This document shows positions 33,845-36,253 of a stretch of 64,000 nt of DNA, one piece after another; within the stretch, counting starts at the first letter, position 1, and every line of letters begins with the position of its first letter. Position numbers and translations under genes: made by a program. The stretch comes from Candidatus Hodarchaeota archaeon. Lineage in GTDB: Archaea > Asgardarchaeota > Heimdallarchaeia > Hodarchaeales > Hodarchaeaceae. The notes under the pieces are model-generated. The model saw only the letters and a program-made list of their open reading frames with translations, searched no databases and was not told the DNA's origin. Location: assembly GCA_029856365.1 (NCBI GenBank), contig JAHQWW010000004.1:50580-114579 (forward strand), given 5' to 3'.

Positions 33845-36253
33845 TTACATTCCTACCTCTGAGCGAGTGATCTCAATTGAACGGGCTAGGAAGTAATCCC
33901 CTAGTACTATTTTTCCCATTAATGTCACAAAAGAATCCGCGTAACTTGCGATTGCTACGGTTTCTCCCATGTCTTCCGTGATCCCAATTATTACCTCTTC
34001 ACCGTCACGATCAGCTGCAATGTATTTTTCAACATCCGTGAATTTCGTAGTATCTACTCTTCTGACACGGACATTGGGTTTTGACAAAAGTTTCTTCAAC
34101 AGATTAGTATCTTTATCTTTAGCTGGATCTAATACTGAGACTAGATTGATCCTCTGATGAGTCTTCGTCTCGAGAATCATTTCGATAGGAATATCGTCTG
34201 CCTGAGGAACCAACAGAGTTATTCCGCTTTTCATCCGTGAGAACATGTGATGCAAATAGTCTAAAACTGCTTCTCGAGAGATGATTGGTGCCGTTTGAAC
34301 TTCAGGATACTTGGTGTCTGTTACCAATGAAGAAAGCTTCTCCAATGAGAATAAATAGTTCTTAAACACCTCCTCGTTCTGTTGTGTCACTTCCTTGAAC
34401 TTTGTAGAATAATCTGCTAGTTCAGTTTCTAATGTTGTGATTTCAGCTTGAAGACTAGCTGCAATCATTTGACTGGTTGAAGAAAGTTGGTCTGTAGCTT
34501 TTTTACTCATTTCATTAACTATAGCAGCCATTTTTTCTTGAAGTTCTCGAGTTTGAACAATGAGTTTCTCTGAACCTTTAACAGCTGTTTCTGTTAAAGT
34601 TGTATTAAATCTAGTATCATAGTTTTTTATTTGCTCATTTAGTTCTCCAACAAATTGATTGATATTTTCCAACAAAGTATTGGTTTCTTGAGTAGCTAAA
34701 ATCTCGATTTCTTGGTGTTTCGTGTTAACAGATGATTTGAAATCTTCCATCATATTGATAAAAATCTCTACTGCCTGGGTTCGTGATTTTGTAATCTCTG
34801 TCTGAAATTTGGCAAGTTCATCGTTTAGATATTGTGCTTGGGGAGATAAGGTCTGTTTAAACTGCTCCAACTGTGAAGTGATTTCAGTTCTTAAAGCTCC
34901 AACAATCTCACTTAATTCGAGTAATGCGGCCCCTTTGGTCTTCTCGGTTTTTTCCTTCGCATCGGATATCATTCCATTAAATGCCGTAGCGATTTGTTCA
35001 CGAGTTTGTTCATAGGTGGTTTGAGTATCCTGTGTGAATCCACCAAATGTTGATTCTGTGTTAATAATTATTTTTTGAACATTACTATCGGTTTGTACCT
35101 TAACTGCTTCTTGGAACTCTCCAAGAGAAGTATTCACCTTATTTCTAGCTTCAGCTACCTTTGCTGATAGTCTATCCTGTGTTTGTTGCAACATCTCAAT
35201 GAGTTGGTTCTGAGTAGTCACTAAAGTCTCGTTTAGCTGCTGCTGTAGGTTTTGAGTACTCTCAATTGTCTTTGATTTAATCTCATCACGTGTGGCCGAA
35301 AAACCTTCCACTACGTCCGTCTTACTTGCATCGAGCTGCTGATGAAATCTCTCATTACATGAATTTAGAGATGATATAACTTTACCTTGGTTATCCTCGC
35401 TGATTGTAGCGACTATGTTAGCAATCTCAGCTGTGGCTTCTGTAATATGTGTACTCAATTTTTCATTTCGCTCACCAATCGATTGGAATAAAGCTTGTCC
35501 AGTTGTATCCATTGATTGATGAACATTCTGAATACCTTGGGTAAGAGAATCTTGTAACAGTGAAGTCAAAGTTTCAGTCGTAGTAGTCAAAGCTTGGTTT
35601 CGTTGAGACTCTGAGGTTTGTAATTGATCAATTCCTTCTTGATAGTTCTCAAGAAATTGTTGATTTATTTCACGATATTTTGAATCCATTTCATTTGCTT
35701 TTTGATCTGATGCTGCTTTCAAACTTGAAATTAATACTTGATGATCACTTTGTTTGATTTCAAATGTTTTATTAATGTCGTCTTTTGTCTGATCGGTTCC
35801 CTGCTCCACTTCGAGAGTGTATCTCGCAATTCTTGCTTCAATATCACCTTCAGCTTTCATCTCTACTTGATTAATCGCGGTTCGAGCTGTTTCTATACCA
35901 TCAGTGATCTTTTGAGATTCTTCACGTACTTTCGTCAAAATTATCTCTAATTTCTTAGCTATATGGTCGTCAAGTTGGGTAGCAAGTTGCTCCATCTGTG
36001 AAATAGTTGTATTAGTAGAGGCTTTTAGATCATTGAAAGGAAGTATTGCATTATATCGCTCAGTAACACCTGGAATTTGATGGATATACTCCTTATTCTG
36101 TAAACCCTGAATTGATTCTACTGTGTCCACTGAAGTGAATTCAGTATATTTAATTATTTCACCAAGAGAAAGAGGCCCCAACGCGAGGAGGGTGATATAT
36201 ACTTTCGACTCCTGAAAATTTAAATCTAACGATTCTAATCCTAGACTGGCCAT
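33845..36253 (-). CDS. TrmB-family wHTH, about 570-aa apolipoprotein-like helical region, and C-terminal TrmB effector (PLD-like) domain
   Basis: N-terminal LESLDLNFQESKVYITLLALGPLSLGEI...IQGLQNKEYI...RYNAILP is TrmB-HTH-like; Q/E/T/K-rich helical middle; C-terminal REAVLDYLHHMFSRMKSGITLLVP...IAADRDGEEVIIG. Confidence 0.75.
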   Translation of the reverse strand: MASLGLESLDLNFQESKVYITLLALGPLSLGEIIKYTEFTSVDTVESIQGLQNKEYIHQIPGVTERYNAILPFNDLKASTNTTISQMEQLATQLDDHIAKKLEIILTKVREESQKITDGIETARTAINQVEMKAEGDIEARIARYTLEVEQGTDQTKDDINKTFEIKQSDHQVLISSLKAASDQKANEMDSKYREINQQFLENYQEGIDQLQTSESQRNQALTTTTETLTSLLQDSLTQGIQNVHQSMDTTGQALFQSIGERNEKLSTHITEATAEIANIVATISEDNQGKVISSLNSCNERFHQQLDASKTDVVEGFSATRDEIKSKTIESTQNLQQQLNETLVTTQNQLIEMLQQTQDRLSAKVAEARNKVNTSLGEFQEAVKVQTDSNVQKIIINTESTFGGFTQDTQTTYEQTREQIATAFNGMISDAKEKTEKTKGAALLELSEIVGALRTEITSQLEQFKQTLSPQAQYLNDELAKFQTEITKSRTQAVEIFINMMEDFKSSVNTKHQEIEILATQETNTLLENINQFVGELNEQIKNYDTRFNTTLTETAVKGSEKLIVQTRELQEKMAAIVNEMSKKATDQLSSTSQMIAASLQAEITTLETELADYSTKFKEVTQQNEEVFKNYLFSLEKLSSLVTDTKYPEVQTAPIISREAVLDYLHHMFSRMKSGITLLVPQADDIPIEMILETKTHQRINLVSVLDPAKDKDTNLLKKLLSKPNVRVRRVDTTKFTDVEKYIAADRDGEEVIIGITEDMGETVAIASYADSFVTLMGKIVLGDYFLARSIEITRSEVGM

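Follow-up and report, generated by a model that had tools for sequence, protein, structure and literature searches.

What could a giant TrmB-like protein be doing inside an archaeal SMC operon, between the genes for the kleisin and the kite subunits? The locus that raises this question lies in a 64,000-nucleotide (nt) stretch of contig JAHQWW010000004.1 (assembly GCA_029856365.1, positions 50,580 to 114,579 of the forward strand) from Candidatus Hodarchaeota archaeon, hereafter the window, and the gene, for which we use the working name Tg (giant TrmB-like rod protein, P0001), encodes 802 amino acids (aa). So far the TrmB family has been familiar for small regulators and for TrmBL2, a chromatin protein able to stall archaeal SMC; an ordinary TrmB has about 250-350 aa and a short (~30-residue) dimerisation helix, a size norm that Tg fails with ~574 helical residues between its end domains. 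Tg is nonetheless a real, conserved protein, with 44 homologues at 39-82% identity that are almost all 799-803 aa long, and it belongs to an undescribed Asgard-wide family whose members are mostly not linked to SMC genes. The reading we favour is that Tg is a stiff, acidic rod, derived from a TrmB/TrmBL2-type ancestor, that may act on the nucleoid alongside Smc-ScpAB, and to this reading taken whole we give a probability of about 0.45. What the analysis shows of it are the identities of the domains, the period and constant length of the rod, the spread of the family and the insertion into the operon; the oligomeric state, the hairpin, an association with the nucleoid and any tie to SMC are inferred. 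The parts of the gene to which the argument refers are as follows.

33845-36253, minus strand: the whole Tg gene, giant TrmB-like rod protein, 802 aa (open reading frame (ORF) and translation; 44 full-length homologues).
36038-36253, minus strand: Tg residues 1-72, a TrmB-type winged helix-turn-helix (wHTH), net acidic (PF01978; TrmBL2 5bqt/5box/5bpd).
34316-36037, minus strand: Tg residues 73-646, a hendecad (11/3) coiled-coil rod of fixed length (AlphaFold2 (AF2) helices and hydrophobic period).
35174-35191, minus strand: Tg residues 355-360, an AlphaFold-predicted turn and putative hairpin apex, of low confidence (predicted local distance difference test (pLDDT) and fold-back of the model).
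33845-34315, minus strand: Tg residues 647-802, a PLD-like domain of TrmB type, predicted to be catalytically dead, with the motif AADRDGEEV (AF2, Foldseek, VIA).

The original prediction, made from the DNA letters, had proposed an 802-codon gene at precisely these coordinates whose product joins an N-terminal TrmB-type wHTH to a C-terminal domain resembling the PLD-like effector region of TrmB, and both ends indeed match TrmB/TrmBL2 folds. At the N-terminus, the Pfam TrmB model (PF01978) matched residues 6-70 with 27.8 bits against a cut-off of 25.6, and TrmBL2 (5bqt/5box/5bpd) was the sole significant sequence match in the PDB, at an E-value of 5e-6 and gapless over residues 4-78. The C-terminal domain was identified by fold comparison only. 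An AF2 model of the C-terminal 173 residues, computed with a 61-row alignment, reached a pLDDT of 93.7 and has the PLD fold; TrmB and TrmBL2 were among its leading Foldseek matches (E ~1e-7), and an exhaustive VIA search placed TrmB first (2f5t/3qph; Z 15.2, root-mean-square deviation (rmsd) 2.4-2.5 Å, 129-131 residues). The VIA alignment covers TrmB residues 108-243, that is, the first subdomain only. By sequence, a PDB search with the domain gave nothing significant, either as a single sequence or as a 61-row profile, and the effector-domain model PF11495 had no match in the whole protein (E<=0.1) or in its C-terminal domain (E<=1), while 4 of 61 C-terminal domains of the wider family matched it, at best with an E-value of 1e-4.

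Functionally, this C-terminal domain is unlikely to be an enzyme. It shares its fold with the PLD/Nuc superfamily (NucT 6ehi, Nuc 1byr/1bys, Zucchini; Z 11-14, rmsd 3.0-3.3 Å, 125-139 residues), but a regular-expression search found the HxKxxxxD motif of those enzymes nowhere in Tg, and the only histidines of the domain are H668, H669 and H699; because the motif is missing, the domain is non-catalytic, as in TrmB, and Tg is not a PLD-class enzyme. What is kept instead is R749, E752 and E753, invariant or almost so across the C-terminal domains of the wider family, and we suggest that this conserved RDGEE patch binds some partner or ligand. Scans with Pfam and NCBIfam also left the SMC, ScpA and ScpB models (PF02463, PF02616, PF04079) unmatched in Tg, and ATPase motifs were absent too.

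Evolutionarily, the closest comparison is with TrmBL2, a chromatin protein and global repressor of Thermococcales (5box, 5bpd, 5bqt), which has the same order of wHTH, helix and PLD-like domain, likewise lacks a sugar-binding function, and is both the only significant N-terminal PDB match and among the top structural matches of the C-terminal domain. TrmBL2 differs in being ~264 aa long with a helix of ~30 residues, where Tg has ~574 helical residues, and in carrying basic residues in the recognition helix and wing, most of which are replaced in the strongly acidic Tg. The sugar-sensing regulator TrmB of Pyrococcus furiosus (3qph, 2f5t) resembles Tg in its Pfam wHTH and supplies the best structural match of the C-terminal domain, but has a C-terminal effector subdomain that is absent from Tg, whose linker is ~20 times longer. 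Since the NCBIfam TrmBL2 model (NF041141) gave Tg 22.3 bits against a cut-off of 530, with the match confined to residues 4-77, Tg is not a TrmBL2 orthologue. The family probably descends from a TrmB/TrmBL2-type protein whose two end domains, once joined by a short dimerisation helix, came to be separated by an extended hendecad coiled coil of a length that is fixed within each lineage.

Structurally, the insert is as helical as the original prediction had it, being nearly free of proline and amphipathic: residues 76-640 hold one proline in 565 residues (0.2%), and AF2 models two long helices, 73-354 and 361-646. The hydrophobicity spectrum of residues 76-640 has a single dominant peak at 3.67 residues, or 11/3, and the hydrophobic phase, averaged over 38 orthologues, is coherent along the entire ~570-residue rod, with each half peaking at 3.66-3.67. 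When the sequence is arranged with eleven residues to a row, hydrophobic residues fall at positions 3, 6/7 and 10 all along the rod; with about 3/11 of positions apolar the stripe is narrow, the pattern typical of hendecad repeats in an almost straight coiled coil. The length of the rod is as constant as its period: over residues 60-660, 36 of the 38 orthologues have no indel at identities down to 44%, and the sole two indels, in different orthologues, are +11 after ~330 (P0053) and +7 after ~364 (P0048). Most likely, Tg is a stiff, acidic homo-oligomer whose rod fixes a distance, with the end domains as its working parts.

How long that distance would be depends on whether the rod folds back. 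In the AF2 model it does, with VIA matches that span model residues 244-467 (antiparallel helical domains) and 9-648, the latter meaning that both rod ends lie together in the model, and with a pLDDT below 50 at residues 355-359 between the two helices. Both indels fall within 30 residues of the predicted turn, which modestly favours a hairpin, because only there would the register of the arms stay intact, and conservation of the rod is symmetric about the same point, being high at residues 81-160, 321-400 and 561-646. Three points speak against a hairpin: the low-confidence apex at 355-360 contains neither glycine nor proline, the hendecad phase runs through these residues unbroken, and AF2 in monomer mode may merely halve any long amphipathic helix. 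Weighing both sides, we think it probable that Tg is a hairpin of ~42 nm, folded back so that its two TrmB-like domains share one end, and regard as less likely, though still a real possibility, an extended parallel coiled coil of ~85 nm with the end domains at opposite ends.

Among known hairpins, the arms of SMC/Rad50 and the signalling domains of chemoreceptors resemble Tg in the ~280-residue helices predicted to fold back on each other, in tolerating indels only beside the turn and, for chemoreceptors, in a weak Foldseek match (9a65), which was all that the rod returned when the full-length model was searched. Unlike SMC/Rad50, Tg has no ATPase head and no hinge, and neither a zinc hook nor any other conserved motif at the apex; the repeat of its rod is a hendecad and not a heptad, and it has no Pfam match to MCPsignal or to the SMC hinge.

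A helix with an 11-residue period may also lie on a lipid surface, and the original prediction had offered a DNA-to-membrane linker as one possible role. Such a linker, built like apolipoproteins A1/A4/E or apolipophorin-III, would account for the amphipathic 11-residue periodicity, which is typical of lipid-surface helices too, and for the Apolipoprotein match (PF01442) of the rod at 61.9 bits. That score is under the cut-off of 90, though, the rod carries a net charge of about -34, and the hydrophobic ~3/11 of positions form a coiled-coil stripe and not a broad apolar face. Neither was a transmembrane segment found in Tg, where the highest 19-aa Kyte-Doolittle mean is 1.47 and lies inside the PLD core. 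The resemblance to apolipoproteins thus appears compositional only, and we consider a membrane or lipid linker highly improbable.

Tg is not an isolated oddity of one genome. A family match was present in 132 of 399 sampled Asgard genomes, with lengths typical of each lineage (~750, 780, 800, 910, 1030, 1100 and 1800 aa), and full-text literature searches gave no description of such a family. An exhaustive search with the C-terminal domain retrieved 118 representatives, proteins of 350-1860 aa in which the domain is almost always C-terminal; among ten sampled, eight had a weak-or-better match to the TrmB wHTH and nine a sub-threshold Apolipoprotein-like helical match. The source genome itself has four genes of the family (802, 760, 1533 and ~1400 aa) besides three TrmB genes of ordinary size. 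In a tree of the end domains, made with the rod excluded and a 'quick' method, the 800-aa proteins form one clade (SH-aLRT 98) nested in a Heimdallarchaeia group; one member, P0053, was labelled there as SMC-linked without a check of its context. We label the GTDB families concerned f1, f2, f4, f6 and f7, of which f1, within Hodarchaeales, includes the 800-aa clade to which a narrow-pattern search of named genomes was confined in its results, and f2 is its sister family. New here, then, are the Asgard-wide family, the acidic wHTH, and a linkage to SMC genes that came about by insertion into an existing operon.

Genomically, Tg splits the smc-scpA/scpB cluster, as had been claimed, with smc, an scpA-like gene, scpB1 and scpB2 on its flanks, all on the plus strand, and the 206-nt divergent spacer to scpB1 is confirmed.

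28873-32463, plus strand: smc, 1196 aa (PF02463 SMC_N, 137.9 bits; hinge match weak).
32500-33348, plus strand: divergent kleisin (ScpA-like), 282 aa, convergent with Tg (hhalign to family f7, and position).
36254-36459, no strand: Tg/scpB1 divergent intergenic region, 206 nt (two conserved AT-rich promoter-like boxes).
36460-37026, plus strand: scpB1, 188 aa, divergent from Tg (PF04079, 65.1 bits).
37036-38229, plus strand: scpB2, 397 aa, with the ScpB core at residues 138-286 and an acidic repeat tail (PF04079, 57.5 bits).

Within f1 this arrangement is constant: scpA converges on Tg, and Tg diverges from scpB1-scpB2, in 20 of 20 loci with both flanks readable. In the sister family f2 (L103, L104), smc, scpA-like, scpB1 and scpB2 are contiguous and co-directional, and the Tg-like genes sit on other contigs than the smc operon. 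Since f2 keeps the uninterrupted smc-scpA-scpB1-scpB2 order, Tg was inserted in f1 only, in the opposite orientation to the ancestral operon, and since f2 has both the divergent kleisin and the ScpB duplication without Tg, these predate the linkage and did not arise with the insertion. Through an insertion on the opposite strand the scpB pair would therefore have gained its own promoter region, and, because that divergent region is common to both sides, Tg is probably co-expressed with Smc-ScpAB. Functionally, Tg may act on the nucleoid together with Smc-ScpAB, perhaps as a roadblock or a positioning factor comparable to TrmBL2, which in Thermococcus kodakarensis determines where Smc-ScpAB is located and makes it stall (PMC11840125); this precedent makes a functional tie of Tg to SMC plausible, by analogy, yet it is unproven. 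An SMC evolution study (bioRxiv 10.1101/2024.01.07.573240) reports that Hodarchaeales have SMC/kleisin/kite operons and also additional kite paralogues; term searches of its text gave no mention of a Tg-like neighbour gene.

Several observations weigh against a nucleoid role with Smc-ScpAB, and the first of them concern the linkage. No smc, scpA-like or scpB gene was found within ~10 kb of Tg-family genes at 35 loci from 15 families other than f1, nor likewise on two metagenome contigs that carry such genes; the immediate neighbours are heterogeneous, and many are metabolic. Even in f1, the two most divergent genomes (G069 and G070; loci L041/L003 and L042) have smc away from scpA, so that the SMC operon is split, and one of them has two genes between Tg and scpB1, with scpA-Tg adjacency kept in both. 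Wider synteny is also conserved within f1, and a frozen accident could therefore account for the linkage. The original prediction of a chromosome-organisation component working with the SMC complex, which named homologues unlinked to SMC genes elsewhere as a refutation, is thus upheld in part: the placement holds throughout the 20 f1 loci and has the TrmBL2 precedent behind it, but at the 35 loci outside f1, and in f2, the linkage is absent. A physical or functional tie between Tg and SMC is, overall, rather doubtful. A complex prediction of Tg residues 600-802 with the ScpA-like protein, ScpB1 and the ScpB2 core scored 0.00, which is evidence neither way.

In the closest form of such a tie, Tg would belong to the Hodarchaeales Smc-ScpAB as a genuine accessory subunit, or be its dedicated partner, binding the kleisin, the kites or the SMC arms, with its coiled coil matched to the SMC arm. 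The invariant placement between scpA and scpB with a common divergent promoter in all f1 loci would fit, as would a kleisin that in f1 and f2 is far from Pfam ScpA yet strongly conserved in the clade, and, if Tg is a hairpin, its arm of ~282 residues would be roughly comparable in length to the SMC arms. But f2 has the same divergent kleisin and ScpB duplication with Tg outside the operon, Tg evolves much faster (40-82% identity) than SMC heads (87-95%) or ScpA (72-94%), and, lying on the opposite strand, it is not co-transcribed with the operon, so that we find a dedicated subunit distinctly unlikely. We are equally reserved about a bolder version of the nucleoid reading, in which a TrmBL2-derived ruler was recruited to the operon and is dedicated to positioning, anchoring or blocking a Smc-ScpA-ScpB1/B2 complex with heterodimeric kites; it, too, seems unlikely at present.

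The second set of observations that tells against the favoured reading is one of charge. Tg as a whole has an isoelectric point (pI) of 4.8 and a net charge of about -39, and its wHTH has a mean net charge of -3.8 across orthologues. In the gapless alignment with TrmBL2 it keeps ~4 of 9 basic positions of the DNA-binding region, most of the basic residues in the recognition helix and wing being replaced, and D43, where TrmBL2 carries an arginine, is invariant in the orthologue alignment. The domain is neutral to acidic throughout the whole Tg family, and an acidic wHTH appears untypical of a DNA binder, so that DNA binding by Tg is, from its sequence, not assured. What speaks for a DNA role is the descent of the two end domains from a DNA-binding family. 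The DNA-bridging rod of the original prediction is accordingly weakened to an assumption, given the net acidic wHTH, the lost basic residues and the pI of 4.8, and for the same reasons a protein-binding wHTH becomes a serious alternative. We thus leave the favoured reading broad on this point: the wHTH may bind DNA, chromatin or a protein partner.

Taken further, the acidic character of Tg could mean that the protein has nothing to do with DNA and is a cytoplasmic structural or scaffold coiled coil, such as a filament, tether or spacer, in which the wHTH and the dead PLD domain serve as protein-protein modules and the position in the SMC cluster is a frozen accident. wHTH folds often mediate protein contacts, as in ScpB, kleisin and ESCRT-II, which suits such a scaffold, as do the acidity of the whole protein and of its wHTH, a multi-paralogue family whose rod length varies (750-1800 aa), and the lack of SMC linkage outside f1, where most neighbours are unrelated. 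Set against this are end domains that are both closest to the DNA-binding TrmBL2 and TrmB, the persistence of the scpA-Tg-scpB position in f1 genomes whose smc has moved, and several paralogues that adjoin DNA-repair genes. The 1533-aa paralogue (L088, 6442-11043, minus strand) divergently adjoins an XPB/Rad25-like helicase with ResIII and Helicase_C domains (11190-12647, plus strand); in family f4 the gene after the Tg-like one encodes a Dna2-like nuclease-helicase that ends in a RING finger (L056, 10883-13858); and elsewhere the neighbours include a DNA ligase, an HhH protein and MutS/MutL within 3 kb. These DNA-metabolism neighbours are a weak hint of a DNA role and not a blind test, and no partner gene is conserved family-wide, since clustering of the ORFs from 37 loci left generic ABC ATPases alone common between families. 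On this evidence a DNA-unrelated scaffold is somewhat unlikely.

The spacer that Tg shares with scpB1 invites a more conventional explanation, that Tg is an ordinary TrmB-type transcription factor for scpB1-scpB2 and itself, with the rod as an oligomerisation extension. The divergent arrangement, with a common spacer of 157-502 nt in all f1 loci, and a TrmB wHTH above the Pfam cut-off are what one would expect of such a regulator. In an alignment of 19 f1 spacers, the closer orthologues share the blocks 'taaattaag' and 'aaaaatc aatataaa'; in the window these AT-rich boxes lie at ~36325-36335 on the Tg side and ~36392-36408 on the scpB1 side, and they are probably promoters. Aligned spacers show these AT boxes only: the 206-nt spacer has only short, imperfect operator-like repeats, none of them conserved in the 19-locus alignment, and there is no conserved palindrome. 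Moreover, a regulator would leave the length-invariant 570-residue rod without a role. The recognition helix of Tg is also acidic, scpB genes do not adjoin the paralogues and homologues elsewhere, and the sugar-binding C-terminal subdomain of TrmB is missing in Tg. We therefore judge local regulation of the scpB pair to be improbable.

Hodarchaeales are the archaeal order closest to eukaryotes, and a Tg encoded inside their SMC operon is a concrete, testable SMC-associated candidate in the closest prokaryotic relatives of eukaryotes. More broadly, Asgard archaea appear to have turned the TrmB scaffold into multi-paralogue giant rods with lengths fixed per lineage, so that the family would be a new class of long archaeal coiled-coil proteins even with an SMC link that came about by accident. 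Should Tg be a dedicated SMC factor, it would be an archaeal counterpart of CTCF-type boundary factors, and its fixed rod length would set the geometry of the encounter with SMC arms. A cultured member of Hodarchaeales with a published proteome exists, Ca. Margulisarchaeum peptidiphilum HC1 (bioRxiv 10.64898/2026.07.02.735847).

As for the other genes of the operon, the ScpA-like gene was recognised by none of the Pfam, NCBIfam, PDB sequence or PDB profile searches, and PF02616 gave no match in any of the f1 genomes, 21 in number, or in families f2, f4 and f6. Its product, 63-94% identical within Hodarchaeales, aligns by hhalign to PF02616-positive ORFs of family f7 with a probability of 70% (E 3.9e-5), a transitive match that lends moderate support, and the gene occupies the smc-scpB interval in the uninterrupted f2 operon; position and the hhalign match together make ScpA a moderately supported identity for 32500-33348. 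Its N-terminal motif DFRILGQAIYSA aligns to INFPVLGRAILSA of PF02616-positive ORFs from another Heimdallarchaeia family. Of the two kite genes, scpB2 encodes ~130 additional aa at the N-terminus and, in its acidic tail, three almost identical copies of a ~28-aa repeat (EEETEVAAEEAEVIEVET-TKSEIKEKS). The tandem ScpB pair is present in f2 as well, and by analogy with eukaryotic Nse1/Nse3 it suggests a heterodimeric kite.

Two minor observations concern the immediate surroundings of Tg. Between Tg and scpA lies one further feature:

33441-33731, minus strand: remnant copy of the last ~100 Tg codons, within an ORF at 33363-33779 (~80% nt identity).

The ~80% identity includes two in-frame gaps, and the surrounding ORF is open for 138 aa. 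At the amino-acid level the remnant is 84% identical to the sister-species allele P0007 against 79% to the resident P0001, and none of the 19 other f1 loci checked carries such a copy; the remnant looks like a scar left by partial gene replacement. Directly downstream of the scpB pair are two Ras/Arf-family small GTPase genes, at 38248-38787 and 39050-39592, both on the minus strand, and the orthologous loci L001 and L002 have more Arf/Ras genes, adjoined by an Apolipoprotein-like helical protein of 395-461 aa.

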